Assembly: GCA_038245905.1 (NCBI GenBank)
Contig: JBBRRY010000017.1
Coordinates: 7,793-71,792, forward strand
Origin: Thermoanaerobaculia bacterium
GTDB lineage: Bacteria > Acidobacteriota > Thermoanaerobaculia > UBA5066
Direction of reading: 5' to 3'
Length of the DNA stretch: 64,000 nucleotides
Shown here: in pieces, positions 20,202 to 59,857 of the stretch
Layout of the letters: every line of letters starts with the position of its first letter
Position numbering within the stretch: position 1 is the first letter of the stretch
The notes under the pieces: generated by a model
The model's input: the letters and a program-made list of their open reading frames with translations, nothing else
Databases searched by the model: none
What the model was told of the DNA's origin: nothing
Program-made: the position numbers and the translations under genes

Positions 20202-21683
20202 GTGACTCTTCGCCTTTACAACACCATGAGCCGCTCGCTCGAGGAGTTTCGTCCCGTCTACCCGGGAAAGATCGGCCTCTACACATGCGGACCCACCGTC
20301 TACAACCGGGTGCACATCGGAAACCTCAGGACATTCGTCTGGGAAGACGTGATGTGCCGCGTCTTTCGCGCCCTCGGCTACGAGACGACCCAGGTGATGA
20401 ACCTCACGGACATCGACGACAAGACGATCCGGGGCGCGTTGGCCGCCGGGCTGCCGCTGCGCGCGTTCACGGACCTTCACATCGCGACGTTCTTCGAGGA
20501 CCTGAAGACGCTCGGCGTCGAGCCGGCGGCGCTCTATCCGCGCGCCACGGAGCACATCCCCGAGATGGTCACGATCGTCCAGAAGCTCGCCGCCCGTGGG
20601 CACACGTACGAGAGCGACGGATCGGTCTGGTTCCGGATCTCGACGTTCCCGGGCTACGGAAGTCTCTCTAAGATCGACCTCACGGCCGTGAAGCGCGGCG
20701 CGCGCGTGGCCGACGACGAGTACGAGAAGGAAGATGTGCGCGACTTCGCGGTATGGAAGGGAGCGAAGGAGGGCGAGCCCGAGTCCGCGACGTGGGCCAC
20801 GGCGCTTGGCCGCGGGCGGCCCGGCTGGCACCTCGAGTGCAGCGCCATGGCGATGAAGTACCTCGGCGAAACGCTCGACATCCACACGGGCGCCGTCGAC
20901 AACATCTTCCCGCATCACGAGAACGAGATCGCGCAGAGCGAAGGCGCGACCGGGAAACCGTTCGTCCATTACTGGCTCCACGCCGAGCACCTCCTCGTGG
21001 ACGGCGAGAAGATGTCGAAGAGCAAGGGGAACTTCTACACGCTTCCCGACCTCCTCGAGAGGGGCTTCTCTCCGCGCGCGATCCGCTACCTCCTCATCTC
21101 GGTCCCGTATCGGATGAAGCTCAACTTCACCTTCGACGGCCTGAAGGCCGCGACCTCCGCGGTCGAGCGGCTGGAGTCGCTCGACCTGCGGCTCAGGGAA
21201 AGAGAGAAAGAGAAGAACAGTTCTTTGAAAGGGGAAGAGGGGGGGAGAGAGGGATTCGAGGGGCGACTGGCGGAGGCGCGGCGTGCGGTCTTTGCCGCCC
21301 TCGAGGACGACCTCAACACGGCCGGCGCTCTCGGGGCGCTGTTCTCGTTCGTCAAGGCGACCAACGTCGATCTCGAGGCGGGCCATCTGTCGGCCTCCGA
21401 CGCAACCGCGGCGCGCGGTCTTCTCCATGAAGTCGCCGGGAACGTCTTCGGAGTCATTGAAAAGACCGCAGGCGACGATGCGCCCTCTTCACCTTCTCAG
21501 AAATCTTCATCCGAATCCCCCGAATCCGATGATGCGTGGATCCTGGAGCGCATCGAGGCCCGAAAGGGGGCTAGAAAGGCCCGGGATTTCAAGGCCGCCG
21601 ACGCGATCCGCGACGAGCTCCTGGGCAAGGGAGTCATCCTCGAAGACACGCCCCAGGGCGTTCGCTGGAAGAGGAAGCCTTGA
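20202..21683 (+). CDS. cysS: Cysteine--tRNA ligase
   Basis: LYTCGPTVYNRVHIGNLR (HIGH) and KMSKSKGN (KMSKS) motifs. GTG at 20202 chosen. The C-terminal region carries repeat copies N and C. Confidence 0.93.
   Translation: MTLRLYNTMSRSLEEFRPVYPGKIGLYTCGPTVYNRVHIGNLRTFVWEDVMCRVFRALGYETTQVMNLTDIDDKTIRGALAAGLPLRAFTDLHIATFFEDLKTLGVEPAALYPRATEHIPEMVTIVQKLAARGHTYESDGSVWFRISTFPGYGSLSKIDLTAVKRGARVADDEYEKEDVRDFAVWKGAKEGEPESATWATALGRGRPGWHLECSAMAMKYLGETLDIHTGAVDNIFPHHENEIAQSEGATGKPFVHYWLHAEHLLVDGEKMSKSKGNFYTLPDLLERGFSPRAIRYLLISVPYRMKLNFTFDGLKAATSAVERLESLDLRLREREKEKNSSLKGEEGGREGFEGRLAEARRAVFAALEDDLNTAGALGALFSFVKATNVDLEAGHLSASDATAARGLLHEVAGNVFGVIEKTAGDDAPSSPSQKSSSESPESDDAWILERIEARKGARKARDFKAADAIRDELLGKGVILEDTPQGVRWKRKP
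21196..21263 (-). repeat. CT-rich dispersed element, copy N (in cysS, reverse; encodes REKEKNSSLKGEEGGREGFEG)
   Basis: GGGAAAGAGAGAAAGAGAAGAACAGTTCTTTGAAAGGGGAAGAGGGGGGGAGAGAGGGATTCGAGGGG. The core TAG is changed to TTG in the reading frame. Confidence 0.7.
21483..21527 (+). repeat. CT-rich dispersed element, copy C (in cysS; encodes PSSPSQKSSSESPES)
   Basis: CCCTCTTCACCTTCTCAGAAATCTTCATCCGAATCCCCCGAATCC. Confidence 0.8.
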
Positions 21684-21709
21684 CAGTGGCGCGCCACTTC
21701 GGGTCTACT
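21680..21709 (+). promoter_or_regulatory. Candidate sigma70-type promoter for the leader/aro-his-trp array
   Basis: Perfect TTGACA at 21680-21685 (overlaps the cysS stop), an 18-nt spacer, then TCTACT at 21704-21709. Assigned by eye only. Confidence 0.3.
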
Positions 21710-21718
21710 TCCGGAGTC

Positions 21719-21760
21719 ATGATCTTCGTCGCGCGCCACTGGCACGTTCATCACACCTGA
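21719..21760 (+). CDS. Candidate attenuator leader peptide MIFVARHWHVHHT
   Basis: Hand translation: ATG ATC TTC GTC GCG CGC CAC TGG CAC GTT CAT CAC ACC TGA. Four His and one Trp codon, followed by a terminator, directly upstream of the his and trp genes. Confidence 0.55.
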   Translation: MIFVARHWHVHHT

Positions 21761-21832
21761 GTCGGCTGCGCCTCGCGCCGCCGGCCCATAGAGGTTCGGA
21801 GGCACGCGGGTTTTCCAACAAGGTCACCCCAA

Positions 21833-21859
21833 CCCCTCCGGATCGGAGGGGTTTTCGTT
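21833..21859 (+). terminator. Attenuator intrinsic terminator
   Basis: CCCCTCCG-GAT-CGGAGGGG perfect 8-bp stem followed by TTTTCGTTTT. The 3' arm contains the GGAGG that serves as the Shine-Dalgarno (SD) sequence for the TTG start at 21860. Confidence 0.7.
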
Positions 21860-23422
21860 TTGGTCCTCACCGCGGAGAAAACACTTCTCGTCGCGTCCCT
21901 CGCACCGGCTTCTAACGCCGAGGCTCTGGGGGGGCGCGCGGCTCTCGCCGACCTGCCTCCGTCGACGGCTGTCGAGCTGCGCCTGGATGCGATGACCGAG
22001 GCGCCTGCGTTCGGCGCGCTGCGCGCGTGCTTCGAAGGCAGAACGCTCATCGCAACCGTTCGATCCAAAGCCGAGGGCGGCGGGTTCCGGGGGAGCGAGG
22101 AGGAAGAGCGGGATTTCCTAGAAGGTGCCCTCTCTGCGGGCTTCGATCTCGCAGACGTTGAATTTCGCCGCGACCTTGGTACTCGCTTCGCCGGAATACC
22201 TCCTTCTAAGAAGATTTCTTCTCTCCACGACCCCGAAGGGGTACCAGCCGACCTCGACAGCGTCGTCTCGAGGATGCTCGCTTCCCCCTCGCGCTTCGTG
22301 AAAGTCGCGGCGACGGCAAACGATTCCGGCGACGCCCGCCGCCTTCTCGAGCTTCAGGCCGCGAACCCAGGGGGGCGCCTCACCGTATTCGGCATGGGCG
22401 AGGCCGGGATCGCCACGCGCGTCCTCTCGCCCTATCTCGGCGCGGCGCTCGCGTACGGGGCGCTCGTCCCCGGGCGCGCCACGGCACCCGGCCAGCTTCT
22501 TGCGCGCGACCTCAACGAGATCTACGGCGTCGGCTGCGCGCGGAGCGTCTCGCGGCTCTTCGGGATCCTGGGCGGCGTCGTCTCGCACTCCCTCTCTCCC
22601 GCTCTCCACAACGCGAATTTCGAGGCTCTCGAAGAGGACGCGCTCTACGTCCCGTTTGCGATGCGGATGCTCGGGAGGGAGCTCGAGCCCCTCGTCGCCT
22701 CCCTCGACGCGCTCGGCCTTCCTCTCGGGGGCGTCTCGGTGACGATCCCGTTCAAGGAAGAGGCCGCGCTCCTTTCGGGCGCGGCCGAGGGCGGCGAGAG
22801 GGCGGTCAACACGCTCCTGAGGTCGAGCGCCCCGGGCCTGCCGCTCCAGTGGCGCGCGGAAAACACCGACCGTGCGGCATTCGAGGCCGTGATTGAAGAT
22901 GCTTCCGAGAGAGGGAGAACCGAGACGAGCGCGAATGCGCGGGTGGCGATCGTCCTCGGGGCTGGTGGTACGGCACGGGTTGCCGTGGATGTTCTCCGAA
23001 AAAGGGGATTCGGAGTCTTTCTGGTGAACCGAGGCGAGGAGCGTGGCGAGGCGCTTGCGGCTGCCACGGGCGCCCATTACCTTTCTAATAAATCCTCGGC
23101 GCCGTGGCCCGAGGCTGGAGTCATCGTCAACGCGACGGCCCTCGGGCTTCTCCCGGGGGATCCTCTTCCCTGCGAGCAAAATATTCTCCGCCCCGGGATG
23201 CTCGTGATCGACGCGCCGTATCGCGCCGGCGGAACAGAGCTCGTCCGGGCGGCGCGCGCAGCGGGCGCGCGCGTCGTAGACGGCCAGACACTGCTCCTGC
23301 TTCAGGCCGCGGGCCAGGCAACGCTCTTCACCGGGCGGCAGACGAGCCCGCGGGATCTGCTCTCGCGTCTCGCGCCGCGCCTTCGCTCCCTGTTTTCGTC
23401 CTTCGAGGAGTTTTCTCCTTGA
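21860..23422 (+). CDS. aroDE: Bifunctional 3-dehydroquinate dehydratase (type I) / shikimate dehydrogenase
   Basis: N-terminal AVELRLD and SSLHD motifs resemble type I DHQase. C-terminal VSHSLSPALHNANF and NATALGL motifs resemble AroE. TTG start. Confidence 0.82.
   Translation: MVLTAEKTLLVASLAPASNAEALGGRAALADLPPSTAVELRLDAMTEAPAFGALRACFEGRTLIATVRSKAEGGGFRGSEEEERDFLEGALSAGFDLADVEFRRDLGTRFAGIPPSKKISSLHDPEGVPADLDSVVSRMLASPSRFVKVAATANDSGDARRLLELQAANPGGRLTVFGMGEAGIATRVLSPYLGAALAYGALVPGRATAPGQLLARDLNEIYGVGCARSVSRLFGILGGVVSHSLSPALHNANFEALEEDALYVPFAMRMLGRELEPLVASLDALGLPLGGVSVTIPFKEEAALLSGAAEGGERAVNTLLRSSAPGLPLQWRAENTDRAAFEAVIEDASERGRTETSANARVAIVLGAGGTARVAVDVLRKRGFGVFLVNRGEERGEALAAATGAHYLSNKSSAPWPEAGVIVNATALGLLPGDPLPCEQNILRPGMLVIDAPYRAGGTELVRAARAAGARVVDGQTLLLLQAAGQATLFTGRQTSPRDLLSRLAPRLRSLFSSFEEFSP
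22097..22134 (-). repeat. CT-rich dispersed element, copy P (in aroDE, reverse; encodes EEEERDFLEGALS)
   Basis: GAGGAGGAAGAGCGGGATTTCCTAGAAGGTGCCCTCTC. Confidence 0.6.
22191..22226 (+). repeat. CT-rich dispersed element, copy D (in aroDE; encodes GIPPSKKISSL)
   Basis: CCGGAATACCTCCTTCTAAGAAGATTTCTTCTCTCC. Contains the exact 11-mer. Confidence 0.8.
23075..23097 (+). repeat. CT-rich dispersed element, copy E (in aroDE; encodes HYLSNKSS), degenerate
   Basis: CATTACCTTTCTAATAAATCCTC. Confidence 0.55.
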
Positions 23423-25050
23423 AGATCGAGCGGCCCGACCCGAACCTGCCGCGAGGCGTGCAGGCATTTCTCTTCGACGCGGCCGAGCGCCGCCGGAAGG
23501 CGGAAGACTCGGTCGTGCGACGGCTTCAGGAGGCCGGTCTGCGTGAGGTGATTCTCCCCGTCCTGGATTTCGCGGCCCCCTATGCCGGCGTGACGGCCGA
23601 GGGAGACGATCGCCTTTATCGGTTCCTCGACCGGCAGGGGAATACTCTGGCGCTTCGGGCGGACTTCACGCCGATGGCGGCGCGCGTCGTGGCGCCACGG
23701 CTCAGCGCGCTCTCCGGAGCCGTCTCCCTCTTCTACCGCGGAGACGTCGTGCGCGACGAGGAGACTGGTGTCGGGCGCCGGCGCGAGTTCGCGCAGGTCG
23801 GCGCAGAGCGTTACGGCGATGGCCGCCCGGAGGCCGACGGCGAAATGCTCGCGCTGGCTCTCTCCTGCCTCGGAGATCTTCCGGCCGAGCGCCTCAGGCT
23901 CACCCTCGGCTGGTCGGGCCTCCTGGAACGCCTGCTCGCCATACTCGCCCCGGGACTCGAAGTGAACGGCGCGTCCGAACTCGCCGTTGCCTTGTCGGCC
24001 GCGCGCGCGCGGCACATCACGGAGCTGGAGACGCGGCTTTCGACCGCGGGCGCCGCGCCGGCCGTCGCTGCGGAAGCCGCCCGGGCCCTCCTCGTCGGCT
24101 TCGACCCCTCTTCCGATCTCTTCCACTCGACTGCCCTTGCGGGCGCGGCCGCGGAGCTCGCGCGCGCGGTCGCAATTGCGAGGGCCGCCCGGCCCGGTCT
24201 CTCGGTCGTCGTCGACCTTGCCGACACTCCCCAGGCCCCCTATTACACGGGGCTCACGTTCAGCGTGGACGCCGCGAGCGGGGGCGGCACGATTGCCGGA
24301 GGCGGACGGTACGACGGCCTCCTCGGGCGTTTCGGCACGGCGGCGCCCGCGCTCGGCTTCTGTATCGGCCTCGAGGCTCTCGGTGCTGCCGCCGATGTAA
24401 CCGAGAGAGACGCGCGCCCTCTCCGAATCGCGGTCGGGAAGGGCCGGCTCCTGCCGCAGGCGCTCGAGGCGCTCGACGCCGGAGGCGCCTCGTTCGGCGA
24501 GCCGGACGGCCGGCGCCTTCTCGTGCTTTCCTCGGACGGCGCGTTCGAGCTGCTTCTCCTCAAGGACGACGACGTCCCGACCTACGTGGCTCACGGTGGC
24601 GCCGACCTCGGGATCGTGGGGAGCGACCGCGTCCTCGAGAGCGGCGAGGACGTGACCTCCCCCGTGGAGCTTCCGTTCGGCGCCTGCCGCCTCTCCCTCA
24701 TCGGGCGGGCGGGGGAGCCGTTCCGCCCGAACGGCGCGCCCGTTCGCGTGGGAACGAAGTACCGCCGCCTCGCGGCCCGCTATTTCGATGAGCGGAAGAT
24801 CGCCCATGAGATCGTCCCGCTCGCGGGTTCGGTCGAGCTCGCTGCCGCGCTCGGGCTCACGGACGTCGTCGTGGACCTCATCGAATCTGGCTCCACGATG
24901 GCCGCGAACGGTCTCGCCGAGATCGAGACCATCCTCACGAGCCGCGCGACCCTCGTCCTCGGGCGTTCCGCGCTCATCGCCCGCCGGGCCGAGATCGCGG
25001 AGTTCGTCCAGCGCCTCAGGGCTCATGCGGGCAAGGCGCTGACTTCATGA
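23419..25050 (+). CDS. hisZG: Fusion of ATP phosphoribosyltransferase regulatory subunit (HisZ) and short-form catalytic subunit (HisG)
   Basis: First about 330 aa are HisRS-like/HisZ (LRADFTPMAARV, YYTGLTFSV, GGGRYDGLLGRFG). Last about 210 aa are HisG (LRIAVGKGRL...DLIESGSTMAANGL). One uninterrupted ORF. TTGA overlap with the aroDE stop. Confidence 0.8.
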   Translation: MKIERPDPNLPRGVQAFLFDAAERRRKAEDSVVRRLQEAGLREVILPVLDFAAPYAGVTAEGDDRLYRFLDRQGNTLALRADFTPMAARVVAPRLSALSGAVSLFYRGDVVRDEETGVGRRREFAQVGAERYGDGRPEADGEMLALALSCLGDLPAERLRLTLGWSGLLERLLAILAPGLEVNGASELAVALSAARARHITELETRLSTAGAAPAVAAEAARALLVGFDPSSDLFHSTALAGAAAELARAVAIARAARPGLSVVVDLADTPQAPYYTGLTFSVDAASGGGTIAGGGRYDGLLGRFGTAAPALGFCIGLEALGAAADVTERDARPLRIAVGKGRLLPQALEALDAGGASFGEPDGRRLLVLSSDGAFELLLLKDDDVPTYVAHGGADLGIVGSDRVLESGEDVTSPVELPFGACRLSLIGRAGEPFRPNGAPVRVGTKYRRLAARYFDERKIAHEIVPLAGSVELAAALGLTDVVVDLIESGSTMAANGLAEIETILTSRATLVLGRSALIARRAEIAEFVQRLRAHAGKALTS

Positions 25051-26357
25051 TGAAGATCGTCGACGCGGATACGCTTGCGGGCAAGAAGGAGCTGGAGCGG
25101 TTGCTAAAGAGCCGCCGGGGAGCCGCTCCTGACTTCGCGACGCTGAAGCAGGTCCTGCCGATCGTGGAGGATGTTCTGCGAAGAGGGGAGCCTGCGCTCC
25201 GGAAATACGTGAAGTGCTTCGACCCGTTGCGCGGCGCCCCTTCTTACCCTTCTAAGAAGCTCTTGATCACTCCCCGACGTGAGGAGTCTTCTCGGGTGGA
25301 TCCGGCGTTTCAGGCGGCGTTTGTCTTCGCCCGCAAGCGCATCGAGGCTTATCACCGCAAGCAGCTCTCGTCCGTCTCGCCGGGTTTCTCCTTCAAGGAC
25401 TCTCTCGGCGTCTCCTTCGTGGAGAGGCCCACGCCGTTCGATTCGGTGGGCGTCTATGTGCCCGGGGGCCGCGCCTTCTATCCGTCCTCGCTTCTCATGG
25501 GGGTCGTGCCCGCGCGCGTCGCGGGCGTCAGGCGAGTCGTCGTCGCGACGCCGCGCGGGGCGTGGGCGTCGAGCCCCGAGCTCCGGTGGGCGGCGGCCGA
25601 GCTGGGAGTCGACGAGGTGCTCCTCGCGGGAGGGGCCCACGGTATCGCCGGCCTCGTGTCCGTCGCGGGCGTCGCGAAGATCGTCGGCCCCGGGAACCGG
25701 TTCGTCGCGGCGGCGAAGCACCTCGTCTCGGGCCTCGTGGCGGTGGACATGCCGGCAGGGCCTTCGGAAGTCGCAATCCTCGCGTCGGCCGATGCGGACC
25801 CGGCGCTCGTGGCGGCGGATCTTCTCGCGCAAGCGGAGCACGATCCCGACGCAAAGTGCTTGCTGTTTACGAGCTCGAGAAGGCTGGCGGACGCCGTTCG
25901 ATGCGCGGCGCTCTCGCAGATGGATGCCTTCGAAGAGGATTCTTCTTTGATGGTGATGAGAGCGGCCTTGCGCCGCGGTGGGCGGATCTTTCTATTCAAA
26001 GAAATCTCCCGCGCCGCGTCGGCCTGCGCTGCCGTGTTCGCGGAGCACGTTCAGGTCATGGGCCGGTCTGTCGAGCGCTCGGCGGGTTCTCTCTTTCCCG
26101 CTGCCGGAACCTTGTTCATTGGCCCGTCGACGCCGACCGCGCTCGGGGACTACGTCCTCGGCCCGAATCACGTACTGCCCACAGGCGGTGCCGCGCGCAG
26201 CTTCTCGGGTCTCTCGGTGCGCGACTTCCTGCGCTGGGGGCGATCGGTCTCGGCCCCCGTGAAGGCGGCCCGCCGCCTCGCGCCCGCGGCAGCGGTCCTG
26301 GCGCGATTCGAAGGTCTCGTCGCCCACGCGAGCGCGCTCGACCGGAGAGTCCGGTGA
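25047..26357 (+). CDS. hisD: Histidinol dehydrogenase
   Basis: KIVGPGNRFVAAAK, DMPAGPSEV, LLAQAEHD and GPNHVLPTGG motifs. Confidence 0.94.
   Translation: MMKIVDADTLAGKKELERLLKSRRGAAPDFATLKQVLPIVEDVLRRGEPALRKYVKCFDPLRGAPSYPSKKLLITPRREESSRVDPAFQAAFVFARKRIEAYHRKQLSSVSPGFSFKDSLGVSFVERPTPFDSVGVYVPGGRAFYPSSLLMGVVPARVAGVRRVVVATPRGAWASSPELRWAAAELGVDEVLLAGGAHGIAGLVSVAGVAKIVGPGNRFVAAAKHLVSGLVAVDMPAGPSEVAILASADADPALVAADLLAQAEHDPDAKCLLFTSSRRLADAVRCAALSQMDAFEEDSSLMVMRAALRRGGRIFLFKEISRAASACAAVFAEHVQVMGRSVERSAGSLFPAAGTLFIGPSTPTALGDYVLGPNHVLPTGGAARSFSGLSVRDFLRWGRSVSAPVKAARRLAPAAAVLARFEGLVAHASALDRRVR
25237..25275 (+). repeat. CT-rich dispersed element, copy F (in hisD; encodes PSYPSKKLLITP)
   Basis: CCCCTTCTTACCCTTCTAAGAAGCTCTTGATCACTCCCC. 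Contains the exact 11-mer. Confidence 0.8.
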
Positions 26358-27421
26358 CCGGCCGGCCCATCCCGGTCCGCGAGGAGATCCGGTCGCTCAG
26401 GGCCTATCGCCTCGAGTCCGAGGACGCCCCCCCTCTCCGAGCGAAGCTGGACTTCAACGAGTCGCCGTTCGACGTGCCCGAGGAAATCCGCGCGGAGGTC
26501 CTCGCGCGCCTCGCGGCGAAGAGATGGGGCCGCTACCCCGAGTTCGGCGCGCCGCGTCTGAAGAGGGCGGTCGCCGAGGCGATTGGCCGGCGGCCCGAAG
26601 AGATCGTGGTCGGCAACGGGTCTGGTGAGGTCCTTCTCGCGGCGGTCTCCGTCTTCGCGGGGGGCGGCTCTCTCGTCCTTCCGACGCCCACGTTCTCGCT
26701 CTACGGACAGATCGCGGCGATCGCGGCGGCCCGCGTCGTGGACGTGCCGCGCACGGGGCCGGATTTCGAGCTCGTCGAGGACGCATTTCTCGCCGCGGTG
26801 TCCCGGCCGCACGCCGTTCCTCTCGTCTGCTCGCCGAACAACCCGACGGGCGGCGTCGTACGGCGGGAATTCCTGGAGAGGCTGCTCACGGCCGCGCCCG
26901 TCGTGCTCCTCGATCAGGCCTACGTGGATTTCGCGGGGCCCGGCGACGACGGCCTCTCGCTCCTCGATGCCTATCCGAACCTCGTCGTCTTCCGGACGCT
27001 CTCGAAGGCGTACGCGGCCGCGGGCTTCCGGATCGGGTACGCAGTCGCGCCGCCGGAGCTCGCGCGGGAGATCGAGAAGGCCGTCCTGCCGTTCAGCGTC
27101 GACCTCGCGGCCGAGGAGTTGGCGGTCGCCGTCCTCGGGCGTCCAGAGGTTGCGCGGGCCCACCTGGGCAAGATCGTGGCCGAGAGGTTGCGCGTGGCCG
27201 CGGCGCTCACGGCGGCCGGCTGCCTCGTGGCTTCGTCGTCCGCAAATTTTCTCTTCGTGCGTCCGCCGGGCGGCCAGGCGGAGCCGGTCCGCCGGGCGCT
27301 TCTCGACAGGGGAATCCTCGTGCGCGAAATGACCGCGGCGGCGCCCGGGCGCCTCCGTGTTTCGATCGGATCCCGTGAGGAGAACGATCTTTTCCTCGAA
27401 GCGCTTCGGGAGGTGTTATGA
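26354..27421 (+). CDS. hisC: Histidinol-phosphate aminotransferase
   Basis: GTG at 26354 in-frame within track ORF 25562..27421. CSPNNPTG and FRTLSKAYAAAGFRIGY (PLP lysine) motifs. Confidence 0.92.
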   Translation: MTGRPIPVREEIRSLRAYRLESEDAPPLRAKLDFNESPFDVPEEIRAEVLARLAAKRWGRYPEFGAPRLKRAVAEAIGRRPEEIVVGNGSGEVLLAAVSVFAGGGSLVLPTPTFSLYGQIAAIAAARVVDVPRTGPDFELVEDAFLAAVSRPHAVPLVCSPNNPTGGVVRREFLERLLTAAPVVLLDQAYVDFAGPGDDGLSLLDAYPNLVVFRTLSKAYAAAGFRIGYAVAPPELAREIEKAVLPFSVDLAAEELAVAVLGRPEVARAHLGKIVAERLRVAAALTAAGCLVASSSANFLFVRPPGGQAEPVRRALLDRGILVREMTAAAPGRLRVSIGSREENDLFLEALREVL

Positions 27422-28014
27422 GCAGGGTCGGAACAGTCGAGCGGAAGACGAAGGAGACGGACGTGTCCCTGTCGCTGACGCTCGACGGAGCGGGGCGAAC
27501 GGACGTGACTACGCCCGTCGGGTTTCTCTCCCACATGCTCGAGACGATCGCGAAGCACGCGCGCGTCGATCTCACGGTCCGGGCGTCGGGCGACGTGCAC
27601 ATCGACGCCCACCACACGGTCGAGGACGTCGGCCTCGCCTTCGGCGAGGCGCTGGCTCAGGCCCTCGGGTCGCGCGCGGGAATCGAGCGCTTCGGCGAGA
27701 GCCTCGTGCCGCTCGACGAGGCTCTCGCGCGTTCGGTCGTCGACCTCTCTGGCCGGCCGTACATCGTGTTCGAGTCTCCCATCGACAAAGAGCTCCTCCT
27801 TGTCACGAACGACTTCCCGTTCGCGCTCGTCGAAGAGTTCTGGAAGTCCGCGGCGTTTCGCGGCAAGTTCAACCTCCATGTGGACGTGATCCGCGCCCGG
27901 AACGGCCATCACGCGGCCGAGGCTGTCTTCAAGTCGGCCGCGCGCGCGCTGCGCCAGGCCATGACGATCACGGGCTCAGAGGTTCTCTCGACGAAAGGGA
28001 CGCTGACGGCATGA
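27418..28014 (+). CDS. hisB: Imidazoleglycerol-phosphate dehydratase
   Basis: ERKTKETDVSLSLTLDG...DAHHTVEDVGLAFG. 198 aa, with no phosphatase domain. Confidence 0.95.
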   Translation: MSRVGTVERKTKETDVSLSLTLDGAGRTDVTTPVGFLSHMLETIAKHARVDLTVRASGDVHIDAHHTVEDVGLAFGEALAQALGSRAGIERFGESLVPLDEALARSVVDLSGRPYIVFESPIDKELLLVTNDFPFALVEEFWKSAAFRGKFNLHVDVIRARNGHHAAEAVFKSAARALRQAMTITGSEVLSTKGTLTA

Positions 28015-28640
28015 GCGAAGCCCCCGCGCCGGTGGTCACGCTCGTGGACTACGGGGTCGGTAACACGGCTTCCGTCATCCGCGCCTTCCGCCGGCTCGGC
28101 GCCGAGGTGGACTTCACGGCCGATCTCGACCGGGTCGCGGCCGCCCGCCGCCTCGTGCTGCCCGGCGTCGCCGCGTTCGCCCCGGCGATGAACCGGCTGC
28201 TCGAGACCGGCCTCGAATCGGCCGTGCGGGCAGCCGTGAAGCGGGGAGGGCGTCTGCTCGGGCTCTGCCTGGGTTTTCAGCTTCTCTTCGAAGAAAGCGA
28301 GGAGCACGGCGTTCACCGGGGGCTCGGCCTCGTGTCCGGCCGTATCCGGCCCTTCCCGGGCAGCGTGCGGTCGCCTCACGTGGGCTGGAACCGGCTCCTC
28401 ACTCGCCGGCCGGACGGTTTCGTCGCGGGGCTTCAGGACCGGAGCTTCGTCTACTTCGTCCATTCCTTCAGACCCGAGGGCGCCGAAGCCGCGGACGTCG
28501 CGGCGGCCTGCGACCACGGCGGAGAGTTCCCGGCGATCGTGCAGCGCGGGAACGTCTGGGGTTGTCAGTTCCACCCGGAAAAGTCGTCGGAGAACGGCCG
28601 GCTCCTGCTCTCGAATTTTCTCGAGGGGGATCCGGCGTGA
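28011..28640 (+). CDS. hisH: Imidazole glycerol phosphate synthase, glutaminase subunit
   Basis: ATG at 28011 within track ORF 27357..28640. LVDYGVGN, LGLCLGFQLL and CQFHPEKS motifs. Confidence 0.93.
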   Translation: MSEAPAPVVTLVDYGVGNTASVIRAFRRLGAEVDFTADLDRVAAARRLVLPGVAAFAPAMNRLLETGLESAVRAAVKRGGRLLGLCLGFQLLFEESEEHGVHRGLGLVSGRIRPFPGSVRSPHVGWNRLLTRRPDGFVAGLQDRSFVYFVHSFRPEGAEAADVAAACDHGGEFPAIVQRGNVWGCQFHPEKSSENGRLLLSNFLEGDPA

Positions 28641-29422
28641 ACGGCGGCCGGCTTGCGCTGTGGCCCGCGATCGACCTCATGGGCGGCCGCGTGGTCCGGC
28701 TGCTCAGGGGCAAGCGCGAGGCCGTGACGTTCTACGACGAGCAGCCTTCCGAGGCCGCGAGGCGATTTGCGGCGGAAGGCGCCGACGGCATCCACGTGGT
28801 GGATCTCGATGCGGCATTCGGAACGGGGGACAACGAAAGCAATCGGAAAGAGATTGAAGAAATACTTTCTGTTTCGGAGGCTTCCGGGGTGGCAGTGCAA
28901 GTCGGGGGAGGGCTGCGCGCCACCGCGGCCGTCGAAGATTTCTTAGAAGGGGTGAGTACCGCTAGGGCAGTTGTCGGCAGCCTGCCGTTCCTCGACCGCC
29001 CCGCGTTCACACACCTTCTAAGAAAATCTTCCTCTTCCGTCTCGGCCCGCATCGTGGTGGCCCTCGATTGCAAGGATGGCCGTCCGACCGTCCGCGGCTG
29101 GACCGAGGACGCGGGAGCGGGTGACGCCGTGTCCGTGGCACGCGAGATGTGGGGCCTCGGCGTCCGGGCGCTCCTCGTCACGGACGTCGCGTGCGACGGG
29201 GCCATGACGGGCCCGAATCTCGAACTCCTCGCCGGAGTGCGCGCCGTCTTTCCGGGCGAGATCCTGGCGTCCGGCGGCATGCGAGGAGAACGGGATCTCG
29301 ATCCGGTCGACCGCACGCTCGCGGGTGGGCCCCGCGGCGCCATCTTCGGCCGCGCATTGCACGGCGGAGTCACCACCATGGCGAAGCTCAAGGCGGCGCG
29401 CGACCTCGGGAGGCCTTCATGA
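28637..29422 (+). CDS. hisA: ProFAR isomerase (HisA)
   Basis: GTG at 28637. [25 protein letters not shown] and VQVGGGLR motifs. Contains repeat copies L and G. Confidence 0.9.
28934..28960 (-). repeat. CT-rich dispersed element, copy L (in hisA, reverse; encodes EDFLEGVST)
   Basis: GAAGATTTCTTAGAAGGGGTGAGTACC. Contains the exact complement of the 11-mer (TTCTTAGAAGG). Confidence 0.75.
29008..29040 (+). repeat. CT-rich dispersed element, copy G (in hisA; encodes [11 protein letters not shown])
   Basis: CACACACCTTCTAAGAAAATCTTCCTCTTCCGT. Contains the exact 11-mer, read in a different frame from copies A, D and F. Confidence 0.8.
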
Positions 29423-30852
29423 CCCTCGCCGTCCGCGTCATCCCGTGTCTGGACGTCTCGGAAGGCCGCGTCGTAAAGGGCGTCTCGTTCGAAAATCTCC
29501 GCGACGCGGGAGATCCGGTCGAAGCGGCCACGCGCTACGAGGCCGAGGGGGCCGACGAGGTGGCTTTCCTCGACATCGCGGCCGCGCACGAGAAGCGAGG
29601 GACGTTCGTGGGGCTCGTGGGGCGCGTGGCCGAGGCGCTGTCTATTCCCTTCACCGTCGGCGGCGGCGTGCGTTCCGTGGAGGACGCGGACGCGCTCCTC
29701 AAGGCCGGGGCCGACCGGGTCACGGTGAACACAGCCGCGGTCGAGGACCCTTCCCTCATCACGCGCCTCTCCGAGCGGTTCGGAGCGCAGTGCGTCGTCG
29801 TCGCAATCGACGGAAAGAGGCTGCGCGATCCGAACGGCCTCGCGGTGATGCGCGTGACGACTCACGGGGGGAGGCGGCCCGTAGACCGCACGGTCACATC
29901 CTGGGCGGCCGCGGCGGCGGCAGCAGGAGCCGGCGAGATTCTGCTCACGTCCGTCGACGCGGACGGCACCCAGGCGGGGTTCGATCTCGAAATGCTCCGC
30001 GCCGTTCGCTCCGTCGTGGATGTGCCGGTCGTGGCCTCGGGAGGCGCGGGCCGGCTCGAAGACTTCGCGAAGGCGGTTCTCATCGGGGGCGCCGACGCCG
30101 TGCTCGCGGCGTCCGTCTTCCACGACCGCGTCTTCACGATTGGCGCGGTCAAGGAGGCGATGCGGCGTGCCGGCCTCGTCGTGCGCCCCGCTCCGGCCCG
30201 CGCACGTACGCTGCTTCCCCGCTACGACGAGAACGGGCTCGTGCCCGTGATCATGCGGGACGTCGCGACCGGCAGGGTCCTCACGCTCGCGTGGGCGAAC
30301 GCGGACGCGATCGCAAAGACCCGCGAGACCGGCCTCGCGCACTTCTACAGCCGGTCCCGGAAGTCCCTGTGGCGGAAGGGGGAGACGTCGGGGAACATCC
30401 AGCACGTCGCGGGAATTTCCCTCGACTGCGACGACGATGCCGTGCTGTACGACGTGCGCCCGTCGGGTCCCGCCTGCCACACGGGAGCGGAATCGTGCTT
30501 CACGCGCGTGGAGAGCTTCGACTCCTTCGACGTCCATGGCGCAGTCGCCGACGGGCTCGACCTCACCGAACTGTTCGCCGTCGTGAGGAGCCGGAAGGAA
30601 TCGCCGGTCGCCGGCTCGTATACGAGCAAGCTCTTTGACGACGGAATAGCGCGCATCGCACAGAAAGTGGGGGAGGAAGCCGTCGAGACGGCGCTCGCCT
30701 CGGTGACAGGCGACGGCAATGCGCTCGCGGGAGAGGCGGCCGATCTTCTTTATCACCTCGCGGTCCTGCTCACGGCGCGCGGCGTCGCACCGGGCGACGT
30801 CGCCGCGAAACTCGCTGAGCGCCGAGGCGCCGCGAGGCGCGAGAAGCCGTGA
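29419..30852 (+). CDS. hisFIE: Triple fusion: IGP synthase cyclase subunit HisF + PR-AMP cyclohydrolase HisI + PR-ATP pyrophosphatase HisE
   Basis: ATG at 29419. HisF: [15 protein letters not shown]...VLAASVFH. HisI: [18 protein letters not shown]...CHTGAESCF. HisE: [10 protein letters not shown]...[13 protein letters not shown]. One ORF of 477 aa. Confidence 0.85.
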
Positions 30853-32225
30853 GGAATCTCCACCGCCTCGTCGTGGTCGAGAGGCCGGCGGACCTTACGA
30901 CGCCCGTTGCGCTCATGAAGGGCCTTCTTGCCGGCGAGGGGCCGTGCTTCCTTCTCGAATCGGTCGAGGGGGGCGACCGCGTGGCGCGGTGGTCCTTCCT
31001 CGGGGCGTCGCCCTCGGGAGAGATCTCCGGCCAGGATACGGATCCGTTCGCCGCCCTCCGCGCGCTGCCTCGCGGCGAAATGGCGGCAGGCGGGGACGAC
31101 CTCCCTCCCTTCACGGGCGGAGCCGTCGGTTACGCGGGCTACGACGCCGTGAGGCGCCTCGAACGCCTCCCCGAAACGAACCCGGACCCGATCGGGCTGC
31201 CGGACGCGTGGTTCGGGATCTTCGACGCGGTCATCGCGTTCGACCATGTGCGGCACCGCCTTCTCTTCGTGACGCATGCCGAAGAGGGCCGGGAGGAAGA
31301 GGCGCGCGCTCGTCTGCACGCGCTCGAGGCGCGCACCCTCACCCGAGGTGGTGAAACGCGCACAGAGACTCTCTCTTCTCTTACCTTCAAAGAATCTTCT
31401 CCTCGTTCCTCCTACATCGCGGCGGTCGAGCGCGCGAAGGAGCACATTCGGGCGGGCGACGTGTTTCAGGTCGTCCTCTCGCGCCGCTGGTCCGCACCCT
31501 TCGACGGCGACGCCTTCGCTGTCTACCGCGCGCTCCGGTCCATCAGCCCGTCGCCGTACCAGTACTTCCTGAGGACGCCGCACGGCGCGATCTTCGGAGC
31601 CTCGCCCGAGCGACTCGTGCGCGTCGCGGCGGCCCTCGGCGGCGCGGCCGTGGAGACGATTCCTCTCGCCGGCACCCGCGCGCGCGGCGCGACGCGCGAA
31701 GAGGACCTCGCCCTCGAGAAGGAGCTCCTCGCGGACCCGAAGGAGCGCGCGGAGCACGTGATGCTCGTGGATCTCGGGAGAAACGACCTCGGCCGAGTCG
31801 CGAAGGCCGGGAGCGTGCGCGTGGAAGATTTTTTCCGCGTCGAGCGCTATTCCCACGTGATGCACATCGCCTCGCGCGTGACCGGCGTTCTCGCCGAGGG
31901 GAAGGACGCCGTCGACGCTCTCGTGGCGACGTTTCCGGCCGGGACGCTTACGGGAGCGCCGAAAATACGCGCGATGGAGATCATCGAGGACCTCGAGCCG
32001 GTGCGGCGCGGCGCCTACGGCGGCACCGTGGGCTACCTCGACTTCGCCGGAAACCTCGACGTGGCTATCGCGATCCGCACGGCGGTCGTCGCGAACGGCA
32101 TTCTCCACGTGCAGGCCGGCGCCGGCATCGTCGCCGACTCCGACCCCGAGGCCGAAGCGACCGAGTGCGAGAACAAGGCCCGTGCTCTCATGGGCGCCGT
32201 TGCGAAGGCGGGGACGTACCGATGA
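30849..32225 (+). CDS. trpE: Anthranilate synthase component I
   Basis: [23 protein letters not shown] and [15 protein letters not shown] motifs. GTGA overlap with the upstream stop. Confidence 0.94.
31368..31412 (+). repeat. CT-rich dispersed element, copy H (in trpE; encodes [15 protein letters not shown])
   Basis: ACTCTCTCTTCTCTTACCTTCAAAGAATCTTCTCCTCGTTCCTCC. The core TAA is changed to AAA in the reading frame. Confidence 0.75.
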
Positions 32226-32791
32226 TCCTCGTCGTCGACAACTACGACTCCTTCACGTACAACCTCGTCCAGATCCTCTCCATGTTCGACGGCGACGTAC
32301 GCGTCGTGCGAAACGACGCGCTCAGCGTGGACGCGATCCTCGCTGCGAAGCCGGACCGGCTCGTCGTGTCTCCGGGGCCGGGCCGGCCGGAAGACGCGGG
32401 AGTCTCGTGCGAGCTGATCCGCCGGAACGAGCGGATCCCTCTCTTAGGAGTCTGCCTCGGGCATCAGGCCCTCGGGGCCGTCTTCGGCGGAACGGTCTCC
32501 CGCGCGCCGGTCCTCATGCACGGCAAGACTTCGGAAATCTCGCACGAGGGAGCGGGCCTTTTCGCGGGGCTCCCGAGCCCGTTCACGGCCACGCGGTACC
32601 ACTCCCTCGTCGTGGAGCGGGACTCGGTTCCCGCGGCGCTCCGGATCACCGCCACGACCGATGACGGGCTCGTGATGGGCCTCGCCCATCGGACCCGCCC
32701 TCTCGTCGGCGTGCAGTTCCATCCCGAGTCGATCCTGACGAAAGAGGGGGAGCGGCTCCTGAAGAACTTCGTGGACGGGCGGCTCGCGTGA
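32222..32791 (+). CDS. trpG: Anthranilate synthase component II (glutamine amidotransferase)
   Basis: [26 protein letters not shown] and VQFHPES motifs. ATG at 32222. Confidence 0.94.
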   Translation: MILVVDNYDSFTYNLVQILSMFDGDVRVVRNDALSVDAILAAKPDRLVVSPGPGRPEDAGVSCELIRRNERIPLLGVCLGHQALGAVFGGTVSRAPVLMHGKTSEISHEGAGLFAGLPSPFTATRYHSLVVERDSVPAALRITATTDDGLVMGLAHRTRPLVGVQFHPESILTKEGERLLKNFVDGRLA

Positions 32792-33828: not shown

Positions 33829-33878
33829 GAGGAGTAAGAGGGAGAGAAATTTCTTAGAAAGGGTAAGAGGAAGAGGGG
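33826..33878 (-). repeat. CT-rich dispersed element, copy M (fills the trpD-trpC intergenic gap, reverse; supplies the trpC SD sequence)
   Basis: TAAGAGGAGTAAGAGGGAGAGAAATTTCTTAGAAAGGGTAAGAGGAAGAGGGG, immediately followed by the trpC ATG at 33879. Confidence 0.8.
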
Positions 33879-35390
33879 ATGGGCGGATCGATTCTTGGGG
33901 AGATTCTCGCCGCCAAGCGGCGCCGGATCGCCCGTGGGGAGTTCACGGCCGAGACGGGCGCGCGCGCACGCACCAGCGGGGGTAGGGGCGCGCAGCCCGC
34001 GGCGCGGCCCGACGGCGCGCGCTTCGCCGCGGCCCTTAGGTCTCACCCTTCTCTTTCTTCCTCCTCCATTTCTAAGCAAGTCTTTCCTCTTCCTCTCCTT
34101 CTTTCCGAGATCAAGCACCGCTCCCCGAGCGCGGGCCTGATTCTTCCCGACGCGTCCTCGCGAATCGAGTCCCTCGCGCGCGCCTATCGGCGCGGCGGGG
34201 CGTCGGTCCTCTCCGTCGTCGTCGAGCAGGACTTCTTCGGCGGCGATCCGTCATGGCTGCCCCGCGCGAAGGCTGCGTCCGGGCTGCCCGTCCTGATGAA
34301 GGACTTCATCGTGGACGAGGCACAGCTGGACTTCGCCGCGGCCCTCGGCGCCGACGCGGTGCTCCTCCTCGTGTCTGCCCTCGAGGACGAGGGGCTTTCG
34401 CGCCTCCATGCGGCCGCGCGCTCCCGCGGTCTCGCGGTCCTCGTGGAGGCGCACGACGAGGCCGAGACCCGGCGGGCGCTGGATGTGGGCGCGGAGGTTG
34501 TCGGCGTGAACGCGCGGGATCTCGAGACGTTCGCCGTCGACCTGCCTGGAATGGCCCGCCTCGGTTCGCTCCTGCCGACGTCAGTCGTCCGCGTGGCCGA
34601 GAGCGGCATCAGGACCCGAGCGGACATCGAGGCTCTCTCCATGGCGGGCTATGGGGCTTTTCTCGTCGGTGAGACGCTCCTCCGCGCGTCCGACCCGGCG
34701 CGCGCCCTGCGCGAGCTCAAGGGCGAGAACGCGACCGAGATCAAGATCTGCGGCGTCACCCGGGAAGAAGACGTCGACGCGTGCCTGGAGTTCGGCGTGG
34801 ACTGGATCGGGCTCATCTTCGCGGAGCGCTCGCCGCGGAAATTGACGCCAGAGAGAGGAAGAATTCTTCGAATGAGGGCAATGGGGGAGCGCGGTGCGCG
34901 ACGAGAGGAAGGCGGGGCTGCGGGCGCCGTCAAGGGTGTGGTGGTTGTCTTCGACGGGGGCGACGAGGAAGAGATTCTTCGAGTCATTGAACTCGTTCGT
35001 CCGGACGTCGTTCAAATGCCAGATCCCCCTCTTACCCTTCAAAAGAAATTCTCTTCTTTCTCTTTTCTTTCGCTGTGGAACACCCTTCGTGTCGGGAGAG
35101 ATGACTTGTCGAGTGCGAATGAGCGGCGCGGCGCCGCTCTCCACTTCGATACGTCGGTGGCCGGGGCGAGCGGTGGCACCGGCAAGACATTCGACTGGAC
35201 TCTTCTGGACGCCGTCGATCGATCGCGCCCGCTGATTCTCGCGGGCGGCCTGAATCCCGGAAACGTGGCGGACGCCGTCAGAAGAGTGAAGCCGGACGTC
35301 GTGGACGTGGCGTCGGGAGTGGAGTCCGCGCCCGGAATCAAGGATCGGGCGAAAATCGCCGCATTCGTGAGGGAGGTCCGTGGTGCCTGA
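33879..35390 (+). CDS. trpCF: Bifunctional indole-3-glycerol phosphate synthase / phosphoribosylanthranilate isomerase
   Basis: TrpC: [21 protein letters not shown]. TrpF: [12 protein letters not shown]...[12 protein letters not shown]...GGTGKTFDW. Carries repeat copies J, Q and I. Confidence 0.88.
34035..34106 (+). repeat. CT-rich dispersed element, copy J (in the trpC part; encodes [24 protein letters not shown])
   Basis: CTTAGGTCTCACCCTTCTCTTTCTTCCTCCTCCATTTCTAAGCAAGTCTTTCCTCTTCCTCTCCTTCTTTCC. Almost pure pyrimidine apart from the core. Confidence 0.7.
34851..34878. repeat. Element-related patch Q with palindromic core (in the trpF part)
   Basis: GAGAGAGGAAGAATTCTTCGAATGAGGG. The GAAGAATTCTTC palindrome resembles the AAGAATTCTTCGGAATTC segment of copy B. 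Confidence 0.5.
35025..35072 (+). repeat. CT-rich dispersed element, copy I (in the trpF part; encodes [17 protein letters not shown])
   Basis: CCCCCTCTTACCCTTCAAAAGAAATTCTCTTCTTTCTCTTTTCTTTCG. Confidence 0.75.
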
Positions 35391-48933: not shown

Positions 48934-49551
48934 GTGCCCTCTCGCCGACCGCTCCCCGCCACCTTTTTCCGCCGCGACACCGAGGTCATCGCGCGTGATC
49001 TCCTGGGCTGCCGGCTCACGCGGCGGCTGCCCGACGGCACCACGCGATCCGTGATCCTGGTCGAAACGGAGGCCTATCTCGGCGTGAAGGACCGCGCGGC
49101 GCACACGTGGAACGGCCGTCGTACCGCCCGCGTCGAGCCGATGTGGGGGGCGGGCGGCCACGCGTACGTCTATTTCGTCTACGGGATGCACTTCTGCATG
49201 AACGTCGTAGCGGGCGAAGAAGGGATTCCGGAGGCGGTCTTGCTGAGAGCGGGGATTCCGGAGGGAGAAGAGAAGGTTTCTTTGAAGGTGAATAGGGGAG
49301 GGGAGGCGTCCGGGCCCGCGAAGCTGTGCGCCTATCTGGGCGTGACCACCGCGCTGTCCGGCGCCTCGCTCTCCGGCCCCGAGCTGGTCCTCTCGCGCGG
49401 GCCGCGTCGGCGGTTCTCGATCGTCGCCGGGCCGCGCGTGGGCGTGGACTACGCGGGGGAGGCCGCGGCGTGGCCGCTGCGCTTCGCGATGGCCGGGTGC
49501 AAGGCCGTGACGAAGCCCAAGGGGCTCCGTCCTTTCCGTGTCATCGCATGA
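48934..49551 (+). CDS. DNA-3-methyladenine glycosylase (MPG/AAG family)
   Basis: FFRRDTEVIARDLLG, ETEAYLG and YFVYGMHFCMNVV motifs. GTG at 48934 has a GGAGGA SD sequence 5 nt upstream; ATG 48916 is also possible. Contains repeat copy O. Confidence 0.85.
   Translation: MPSRRPLPATFFRRDTEVIARDLLGCRLTRRLPDGTTRSVILVETEAYLGVKDRAAHTWNGRRTARVEPMWGAGGHAYVYFVYGMHFCMNVVAGEEGIPEAVLLRAGIPEGEEKVSLKVNRGGEASGPAKLCAYLGVTTALSGASLSGPELVLSRGPRRRFSIVAGPRVGVDYAGEAAAWPLRFAMAGCKAVTKPKGLRPFRVIA
49251..49306 (-). repeat. CT-rich dispersed element, copy O (in the MPG glycosylase gene, reverse; encodes GIPEGEEKVSLKVNRGGE)
   Basis: GGGGATTCCGGAGGGAGAAGAGAAGGTTTCTTTGAAGGTGAATAGGGGAGGGGAGG. The core TAG is changed to TTG in the reading frame. 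Confidence 0.7.
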
Positions 49552-54727: not shown

Positions 54728-54777
54728 GGTTCCTCCAGCGGCCGAAGAGTATCGGCTCCCGGTGCTAATGTCTCCTC

Positions 54778-56321: not shown

Positions 56322-56343
56322 TCGGGCGAGGACCGGCAGGACC

Positions 56344-58392: not shown

Positions 58393-58477
58393 TGGAGGCA
58401 GTGTACCGCCGGCGCGGTACAATAAGACTTGTTAGCGCCTGCCGCTCAAGCGCCGACCGGGTTCCGGCTCGCCTTCC

Positions 58478-59857
58478 ATGAAACAACCAGCTTCTCTCCC
58501 GTCCGTCGGCATCGTGTCGCTCGGATGCCCCAAGAACCTCGTCGACACCGAGGTGATGCTCGGCCATCTCCAGCGCGAGGGCATGACGCTGGCCGACCCC
58601 GAGAAATCGCGCGTCGTCATCGTGAACACCTGCGGCTTCATCGACGCGGCCAAGGAGGAGTCCGTCGGCGCAATCCTCCGCGAGGTGGCGCGCAAGGAAG
58701 CCGGGGAGATCGACCGCGTCGTCGTCGCCGGCTGCATGGTGCAGAAGTACGGCCGGGAGCTCGCGGCCGAGATCCCCGAGGTGGACCACTTCATCGGCCT
58801 CGACGAGCTGGAGAAGGCGCCCGCGGCGGCCCTCGGCCTCCCGTCGCTCCCGCGTTTCAGCGACAAACCCCTCGCGACCCGGCTCTACGACGACCTCTCT
58901 CCGCGCGTCCTCACACACCGTAAGGGCTACGCCTATCTGAAGGTCGCCGAGGGCTGCAACAACCCATGCACGTTCTGCACGATTCCGCAGATGCGCGGCC
59001 TCATGCGCTCGCGCACGATCGCGTCGCTCGTGAAAGAAGCGCAGAGCCTCGAGGCGCAGGGCGTCCGGGAGCTCGTCCTGATCTCGCAGGACACGACCCG
59101 CTACGGCGAGGACCTCGGACTCGGCCGGACGGGCCTCGCCGATCTCGTGAAGGCGCTTCTTGCCGAGACGGGCTTCCCCTGGGTGCGCTTCCTGTACGCC
59201 TACCCGAAGACGCTCCACCGGGGCGTCTTCCAGCTCATGGCGAGAGAGCCGCGTTTCGTCCCGTACGTCGACATGCCGCTCCAGCATGTCTCCCGGAAGA
59301 TCCTCACGAAGATGAAGAGGGGAGGCGACGGCGCGAGCTATCTGAAGCAATTCGAAGAAATCCGAAAACTCGTCCCCGAGATTTCCCTCCGCTCGACCTT
59401 CATCGTGGGCTTCCCGGGCGAAGAGGAGAAGGATTTCATAGAAGTGGAAGAGTTTCTCAAGGCCGTCCGCTTCGACAACGCGGGAGTCTTCACGTACTCC
59501 CCCGAACCGGGATCCGGTGCGGAATCGCTCGGGGACCCTCTTCCACTCGAAGAAAAATCTTCACGCCGCGACCGTTTGATGGAGGTCCAGCAGAAGATCT
59601 CTCTATCGAAGAACCGCGCGAAGCGCGGCAAGATCTTCGACGCCCTGCTCGAAGGCCCCAGCGAGGAAACGGAGATGCTCCTCGAGGCGCGCCTCGCCGG
59701 GCAGGCCCCCGAGATCGACGGGCGCGTGCTGATCAACGACGTCCCCTCCGGCTGGGCGCCGCGCGTCGGCGAGATCGTGCGTGTGAAGATCACCGAGGCG
59801 CACGCCTACGACCTCGTCGGGCGGGTCGTAGCGCCCGTCGCTTCCACCGTCGCTTAA
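58478..59857 (+). CDS. rimO: Ribosomal protein S12 methylthiotransferase RimO
   Basis: VSLGCPKNLVDTE, radical-SAM CNNPCTFC, and a TRAM-like C-terminus. Confidence 0.9.
   Translation: MKQPASLPSVGIVSLGCPKNLVDTEVMLGHLQREGMTLADPEKSRVVIVNTCGFIDAAKEESVGAILREVARKEAGEIDRVVVAGCMVQKYGRELAAEIPEVDHFIGLDELEKAPAAALGLPSLPRFSDKPLATRLYDDLSPRVLTHRKGYAYLKVAEGCNNPCTFCTIPQMRGLMRSRTIASLVKEAQSLEAQGVRELVLISQDTTRYGEDLGLGRTGLADLVKALLAETGFPWVRFLYAYPKTLHRGVFQLMAREPRFVPYVDMPLQHVSRKILTKMKRGGDGASYLKQFEEIRKLVPEISLRSTFIVGFPGEEEKDFIEVEEFLKAVRFDNAGVFTYSPEPGSGAESLGDPLPLEEKSSRRDRLMEVQQKISLSKNRAKRGKIFDALLEGPSEETEMLLEARLAGQAPEIDGRVLINDVPSGWAPRVGEIVRVKITEAHAYDLVGRVVAPVASTVA
59536..59567 (+). repeat. CT-rich dispersed element, copy S (in rimO; encodes DPLPLEEKSSRR)
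   Basis: CCCTCTTCCACTCGAAGAAAAATCTTCACGCC. The core TAA is changed to GAA in the reading frame. Confidence 0.6.

Follow-up and report, generated by a model that had tools for sequence, protein, structure and literature searches.

The window analysed here, a 64,000-nucleotide (nt) stretch of contig JBBRRY010000017.1 from a Thermoanaerobaculia bacterium (Acidobacteriota), carries recurrent copies of a nine-nt palindromic core, TTCTAAGAA, which in one of its three reading frames places a stop codon, TAA or TAG, in the open reading frame (ORF) of its host gene. The locus raises the question of what these copies are, and of how they are accommodated within genes of core metabolism. The initial annotation described a single common element. 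Comparison with related loci shows instead an interspersed repeat, specific to one clade, whose unit is an inverted doublet of fixed polarity; each copy represents an arm of this repeat.

An arm is ~35–40 nt long and consists of pyrimidine-rich flanks around TTCTAAGAA. The consensus of the aligned copies is extended and directional, gCCCCTCTTCACC-TTCTAAGAA-ATCTTCtTCTC, and both of its flanks are G-poor. In 30 related loci, 55 of the 58 pairs of adjacent arms that lie <400 nt apart show the order −+, three are −− and none is +− or ++; the −+ order is also found for 50 of 59 neighbouring arm pairs in independent metagenome loci (p = 8e-22). In each doublet a purine-rich arm precedes a pyrimidine-rich one and the GGTGAAGAGGG / CCCTCTTCACC flanks point inward, an order that reads the same from either strand. 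The arm-to-arm spacing ranges from 26 to 350 nt and the spacer DNA is unrelated between sites. In predicted minimum-energy folds the partner arms pair with each other, with z = −2.9 in hisA and z = −3.7 at an intergenic doublet.

The window has a composition of ~67% GC and holds seven exact copies of TTCTAAGAA (0.09 expected) and 28 matches with at most one mismatch (2.5 expected); 120 exact cores occur in the 605 kb formed by the window and the loci of its relatives. The closest match to the window HisA protein, in locus L006 (85% identical), comes from metagenome-assembled Thermoanaerobaculia, and a repeat-arm scan of metagenomes returned at least 120 loci, of which ~95 of those listed have a GC content of 0.63–0.74. 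The family is specific to a subgroup of Thermoanaerobaculia, a soil lineage, and extrapolation gives some hundreds of arms per genome. A scan of viral contigs for the arm gave nine matches, all at a GC content of 0.34–0.55 and judged to be chance; an Rfam scan of the window gave no match to curated covariance models, and a literature search on the 9-mer or on Thermoanaerobaculia repeats found nothing relevant. Arms of the window were scored with an independent profile of 411 arms, all from outside the window, and their reading frames were fixed by Pfam-supported ORFs (Table 1).

Arms occupy matching protein positions in ~25 species and across genera, and are therefore not recent. The catalogue of conserved sites comprises cysS −383/+474, aroD −86/+115, aroE −378/+408, hisD −43/+68 and −299/+317, hisA −127/+152, trpE +180, the trpD/C spacer, trpC +57–64 and trpF −328/+387. 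At the third codon positions of the hisA arms, pairwise identity is 0.76–0.78 and the AT fraction 0.54–0.68, as against 0.47–0.54 and 0.13–0.22, respectively, in the adjacent codons. Indeed, arms retain A or T at third positions although the GC content of third codon positions (GC3) is ~85%. Arms account for 3.6% of the 4712 codons of the cysS-aro-his-trp operon, yet they contain its sole TTA codon (in the hisA minus arm, at 28940), three of its five CTA codons and 21 of its 44 TCT codons. The arms are thus held by constraint on the nucleotide sequence itself.

This constraint meets that of the host gene wherever the core is read in the stop frame. The initial annotation had noticed that copies read in this frame lack the stop triplet, and the pattern is real: in the window the triplet is kept in none of five genic arms in the stop frame and in eight of 11 in safe frames (Fisher p = 0.026), and at the level of sites in none of seven and 12 of 13, respectively (p = 1e-4). 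ORF-based frames would be circular for metagenome arms, as an ORF search will not assign any intact core to the stop frame; frames were taken in their place from the GC3 periodicity of the flanking DNA, which leaves most arms unclassified and gives p = 0.001 for frame dependence. The individual readings hold up with few corrections. Those of copies A, D, F, G, L and P, and the TAA or TAG of the intergenic copies B, K and M, are recovered as described, and copy H is exact in reading and coordinates; N, O and S were read correctly but placed one base off. Copy J, described as TTT CTA AGC, is read in the trpC frame as in Table 1, and this frame is still a safe one. To the four stop-frame copies recognised previously (H, N, O and S) a fifth has to be added, in hisD at 25995, which is kept in five relatives. 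All four do belong to the family, copy O by its profile score and copies N, H and S through orthologous arms in relatives; mpg orthologues were not recovered, so that the assignment of O depends on that score. As had been proposed, the stop is removed by selection that keeps the reading frame open. However, the frame pattern is not the internal evidence of shared ancestry that it was taken for, because stop loss is forced in any intact gene, and the Fisher table for this reason mostly restates selection on the host genes. Evidence of ancestry resides instead in the flanks, the orthologues and the single position at which the stop is escaped.

That position is the fourth of the core, a T that belongs both to the plus-strand TAA and to the minus-strand TAG. 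It varies in 24% of the 411 arms, while all other core positions are at least 94% conserved. All stop-frame sites escape here, plus arms by [A/G/C]AA and minus arms by TTG or TCG; a change at position 3, 5 or 6 would likewise remove the stop, and the probability of such uniformity by chance is ~0.0016 for the window with its relatives and ~0.0002 for the metagenome arms. At trpF −328, one relative in the safe phase keeps TTCTTAGAA and three in the stop phase read TTCTTTGAA. Two joint constraints would account for this behaviour, one keeping the host ORF open and the other keeping the arm near its consensus: the stop would be removed at position 4 because both are needed and this is the sole tolerant base of the core. 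By GC3 periodicity, one intact TTCTAAGAA does lie in a stop frame (locus L065, position 1054); it may belong to a pseudogene or to the end of a gene, or its frame may have been assigned wrongly. A solution by a frame-shifted core, considered for locus L146, was dropped as the ORF there is not cysS.

The proposal that the sequence was inserted or copied into genes and then filtered holds for some sites only. In hisD, at the site of the window arm at 25250, an additional minus arm and its spacer form an in-frame indel of 30–38 amino acids (aa), which 10 relatives have and five, the window among them, lack, and the cysS linker, which varies in length and contains duplicated arms, also behaves as an in-frame insertion. 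By contrast, seven arms (aroD−, aroD+, aroE−, aroE+, hisA−, trpE+ and rimO+) replace native codons with a length change of 0–1 codon relative to motif-free outgroups, and since native codons are overwritten without a change in length, these arms are not simple insertions. Examples are PPERVVVSVHD to PPSKKISSLHD in aroD, LTWAESLP to LTFEESLP in trpE and PQDVKEARR to PFEEKSSRR in rimO. The sequence between the two hisA arms, and that between the two aroD arms, is native and conserved enzyme sequence. Arms have thus been gained both by replacement and by in-frame insertion in loops and linkers.

RimO homologues of 85–91% identity carry one of two equally long blocks, 'P(F/L)EEKSSRR' with the arm or 'PQDVKE(A/E)RR' without it, and a few show intermediates (window 59540–59570; L166–L168, ~11060–11100; proteins P0001–P0120). 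This patchy distribution is as expected from recombination or conversion. In hisA, the TCTTCC-type tail of the plus arm has expanded in relatives in the manner of a microsatellite (window 29025–29045; L014, L016 and L026, ~10360–10480), and its translation is a poly-Ser tract of 4 to ~30 residues within HisA. Translations of the hisA, hisD and cysS regions from the long-contig metagenome-assembled loci L020, L030 and L033 lose frame near arms (X or *); long-read assembly may have introduced homopolymer errors here, where the arms have A/T runs.

Beyond the operon, arms at metagenome loci lie in unrelated genes, including those for aconitase, AlaRS, MetRS, DnaX, UvrD, RecG, RNase R, a ComEA-like protein, ABC-F, a Mur ligase and transporters. 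Of 50 independent doublets, ~15–17 are wholly inside one ORF and about two thirds are intergenic, at gene ends or at contig edges; those outside genes often stand 15–40 nt past a stop codon, next to terminators. In the window, nearly all doublets lie within ORFs, and no stop interrupts their translation. The cysS-aro-his-trp operon is a hot spot, with 13 arms in 13.9 kb compared with five in the other 50 kb (9-fold, Poisson p = 2e-4), a pattern that is repeated in the relatives; outside it the density is ~0.1 arm per kb.

Taken together, we favour with moderate confidence a family of palindromic doublets similar to repetitive extragenic palindromic (REP) sequences or to Rickettsia palindromic elements (RPE), held by nucleotide-level constraint. 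Like REP sequences with their bacterial interspersed mosaic elements (BIME), or like REPINs, the doublets would be sites able to form hairpins, to which a sequence-specific factor binds; they would act as mRNA hairpins at 3′ ends or within operons, or as protein-binding sites, and their arms would probably be renewed by short-patch gene conversion between copies. Several results weigh against this picture. The palindrome within one arm is merely 4+1+4 and the arm is not itself a hairpin, and neither the spacing nor the spacer of the doublets is fixed, in both respects unlike REP and REPIN sequences. RNAalifold predicts a helix for 21 hisA doublets with no covariation between partner arms, a result that is uninformative as all pairs are invariant. 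A forced change at position 4 is compensated in the partner arm in four of 15 cases in cysS (~3 expected) and three of eight in hisD, which is about chance, and partner arms fold better than non-partners by just −2.3 kcal/mol (p = 0.004) in data that are not phylogenetically independent. This absence of covariation and of excess compensation, with the small partner advantage, speaks against a function as RNA helix alone. In the loci analysed, which are not whole genomes, neither a trans-acting factor nor a RAYT-type gene or transposase was found, and a generic repeat family would not lead one to expect the 9-fold enrichment in one operon. A related possibility, which we regard as unlikely, is that an active, sequence-specific process writes the arms into genes, or that they are selected as an intragenic signal, so that throughout the clade a nucleic-acid signal would repeatedly override the protein sequence of conserved enzymes, among them AroD, AroE, HisA, TrpE and RimO. 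Writing might proceed by templated short-patch conversion, with an abundant copy as the donor, or by biased uptake with recombination; a candidate signal would be hairpins that end transcripts, untranslated or antisense ones, on both strands.

The model of the initial annotation, read here as one in which a mobile palindromic element, RPE-like or a miniature inverted-repeat transposable element (MITE), inserts, survives where the frame stays or becomes open again and then decays neutrally, is also a doubtful one. The hisD indel, the variable cysS linker and a 13-nt strain difference in the rpsK-rpsD spacer are what it would produce, many arms do lie in linkers or loops of unrelated proteins, and the inverted arms of fixed polarity supply MITE-like terminal inverted repeats. 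It does not explain the seven overwritten sites, the native coding sequence between the hisA and aroD arms, spacers unrelated from site to site, or old orthologous arms that stay near consensus under GC3 pressure instead of decaying. Of the other MITE hallmarks, uniform internal sequence, target-site duplications and a related autonomous insertion sequence were not seen, whole genomes not having been searched, and ORFs between arm pairs 450–3000 nt apart, searched for a transposase, are ordinary genes only. Overwritten codons with changed amino acids would fit a signal for DNA uptake and recombination, such as the uptake signal sequence (USS) of Pasteurellaceae or the DNA uptake sequence (DUS) of Neisseria, which molecular drive accumulates by point changes wherever proteins tolerate them. 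The strongly conserved 9-nt core with weaker flanks, the use of both orientations and of all permitted frames, orthologous sites kept within one clade, the patchy RimO block and inverted pairs adjoining terminators point the same way. Such a signal is nevertheless improbable here, as uptake bias predicts neither doublets of a single polarity with 35–40-nt arms nor a strong local hot spot, and the density outside that hot spot is ~10-fold below what is generally known for USS and DUS genomes; a ComEA-like gene was noted among the hosts. The hot spot itself, conserved in all relatives, and the palindromic core TTCTnAGAA would suit operators of a transcription factor for amino-acid biosynthesis, acting as roadblocks or loops within the operon. 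We consider this very improbable: elsewhere arms are mostly in unrelated genes, no arm was seen in the region upstream of cysS, sites are intragenic or past stop codons and not concentrated at promoters of related genes, the flanks are long, asymmetric and strand-biased, and core positions 4 and 6 are unequally conserved where a symmetric dimer would need them alike. That there is no element, only a chance or compositional likeness of Ser/Lys/Glu-rich linker codons, could be argued from the low-complexity flanks and from the scores of copies S and H, weak on their own. This reading is already refuted by the enrichment of the core, by the strict doublet polarity, which composition leaves unexplained, and by one 9-mer at orthologous sites of ~25 species in three frames and both orientations, with intergenic copies besides.

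Interspersed palindromic repeats are normally treated as extragenic, and in-frame ones are known mainly from Rickettsia. REP sequences are extragenic by definition and each is an imperfect palindrome with a conserved GTAG-type end, while REPINs have a fixed spacing and spacer and an associated RAYT transposase gene. The present family resembles them in its short conserved repeats, in inverted doublets of fixed polarity able to form long hairpins, in numbers of hundreds per genome, in its location past stop codons and within operons, and in vertical inheritance with long retention in a lineage. It differs in that the extragenic location fails for the doublets wholly within ORFs, and that an arm forming its own hairpin, a GTAG-type end and fixed spacing were not seen, nor, in loci short of whole genomes, was a RAYT gene. 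REP/BIME and REPIN doublets are reportedly the subject of a study by Bertels and Rainey from 2011. USS and DUS share with the present arms a core of 9–12 nt with weaker flanks laid over coding sequence in permitted frames, forced amino-acid changes, orthologous sites that are kept and inverted pairs at terminators. Their density is near 1 per kb, and they are evenly spread along the genome. Here, in contrast, density is much lower, and the long arms come as obligate doublets of a single polarity, with a local hot spot. USS and DUS are said to have been studied by Smith in 1995 and by Findlay and Redfield in 2009.

The RPE unit (Ogata et al. 2000, as summarised in PMC10969869) is a sequence of ~100–150 bp with a family-specific interior that is inserted whole. 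RPE are palindromic repeats that occur many times in unrelated housekeeping genes and are read in frame without a stop, that add or alter surface peptide segments and that have orthologous copies common to several species, all features found here. Unlike in RPE, conservation in the present family is restricted to the arms, which enclose native gene sequence, several arms take the place of native codons without insertion, and about two thirds of the doublets are not wholly in an ORF; the sequences are unrelated and the phylum is another one. Correia and ERIC elements belong to the MITEs, have a uniform interior and target duplications and are mostly intergenic; the hairpins that they form in mRNA serve as RNase III substrates or expose sites for RNase E (PMC10969869). 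The arms described here are likewise inverted repeats co-transcribed with genes and predicted to form mRNA hairpins; they lack a uniform internal sequence. Because a defining feature of each fails here, the family is set apart from RPE, REP/REPIN and USS/DUS.

A repeat family of an uncultured and widespread soil and peat lineage thus occupies conserved positions in core metabolic genes, often without adding length, by exchanging 5–8 native codons for rare ones ending in A or T that are then kept across genera. This provides a clean natural case of two codes competing for the same bases, in which the stop rule and the single escape position give a quantitative read-out of the strength of the nucleotide-level constraint. 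Annotators of these proteomes should be aware that DNA, and not protein function, may dictate the sequence of 'linkers' rich in Ser/Lys or Glu.

Table 1. Repeat arms in the window, with E values from the independent profile; letters are those of the initial annotation.
Position	Strand	Copy	Gene or location	Core and reading	E	Remarks
4204..4212	+	A	ribosomal protein L29, Lys/Ala-rich C-terminal tail	exact core; safe frame, CCT TCT AAG AAA	6.4e-6	
12987..12995	+	B	rpsK-rpsD spacer	exact core; stop triplet kept		begins right after rpsK stop
15442..15450	−	K	40 nt past rplQ stop	TTTTAAGAA; stop triplet kept	0.004	adjoins rplQ intrinsic terminator
21221..21229	−	N	cysS, linker ahead of DALR domain	stop frame, TCT TTG AAA at 21222–21230	0.087	
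21494..21502	+		cysS, past DALR domain	TTCTCAGAA; safe frame	1.3e-5	partner of N, 273 nt away
22115..22123	−	P	aroD	coding strand TTC CTA GAA	0.013	over native codons
22204..22212	+	D	aroD	exact core; CCT TCT AAG AAG ATT TCT TCT		partner of P; over native PPERVVVSVHD position
22992..23000	−		aroE	TTCTCCGAA, decayed		exact TTCTTAGAA in 9 relatives
23083..23091	+		aroE	TTCTAATAA; safe frame	0.031	partner of 22992; length unchanged relative to outgroups
25250..25258	+	F	hisD	exact core; safe frame, CCT TCT AAG AAx		
25995..26003	+		hisD	stop frame, TTC AAA GAA	0.023	5 relatives, all TTCAAAGAA
28940..28948	−	L	hisA	exact core; GAA GAT TTC TTA GAA		
29016..29024	+	G	hisA	exact core; CTT CTA AGA AAA		partner of L, 76 nt away in all species; then TCTTCC-type tract read as poly-Ser
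31386..31394	+	H	trpE	stop frame, TTC AAA GAA	0.31	over native LTWAESLP
33851..33859	−	M	trpD-trpC spacer	exact core; stop triplet kept		inner flank AAGAGGAAGAGGGG right before trpC ATG; in ~15 relatives
34070..34078	+	J	trpC	TTCTAAGCA; safe frame, ATT TCT AAG CAA		partner of M
34864..34872	−		trpF	coding strand TTCTTCGAA; safe frame in window	0.26	
35038..35046	+		trpF	TTCAAAAGA, weak	0.16	partner of 34864; good flanks
49278..49286	−	O	mpg (methylpurine glycosylase)	stop frame, TCT TTG AAG at 49279–49287	1.4e-4	
59435..59443	−		rimO	coding strand TTC ATA GAA	0.13	
59546..59554	+	S	rimO	stop frame, CTC GAA GAA	1.2	partner of 59435, 111 nt away

Relatives complete the picture at several of these sites. 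At 12987, strains with 92–96% nucleotide identity lack 13 nt of the arm, carry substitutions in addition and retain a degenerate TTCCAAGAG only. At the cysS site of copy N, at least 13 relatives read GAAGAT-TTCTT[T/C]GAA-GGTGAA.., with flanks equal to the consensus, and the in-group reading at the trpE site is CCTCTTACC-TTC[G/A]AAGAA-TCTCTTCC. The rimO minus arm is an exact TTC TTA GAA in L166 and L167; rimO orthologues either carry TTC GAA GAA AAA TCT TC, whose partner 111 nt upstream is an exact TTCTTAGAA, or have an equally long native block that lacks the motif, and synteny around rimO is not conserved.

The operon arms lie in one co-directional block (20073–37418) consisting of cysS, aroD-aroE, hisZ-hisG, hisD, hisC, hisB, hisH, hisA, hisF-hisI-hisE, trpE, G, D, trpC-trpF, trpB and trpA, with four gene fusions and next to no intergenic DNA. 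Some intergenic doublets or arms (L126, 1396–1511; window, 15442–15486) enclose or adjoin a GC-rich terminator hairpin with a T/C-rich tail, and a doublet around such a terminator, between convergent genes, forms a larger stem that encloses the real terminator. Arms can also supply gene signals: ORFs of the metagenome loci L053, L074 and L114 end in '..FLRR*' through the TGA of the inner flank GGTGAAG, and at 33851–33881 of the window the inner flank occupies the position expected for the trpC ribosome-binding site. Long C-terminal extensions are seen in ribosomal proteins L29 (161 aa, 3806–4291), where the extension is Lys/Ala-rich, and L17 (212 aa, 14764–15402), where it is rich in Lys, Ala, Glu and Gly.

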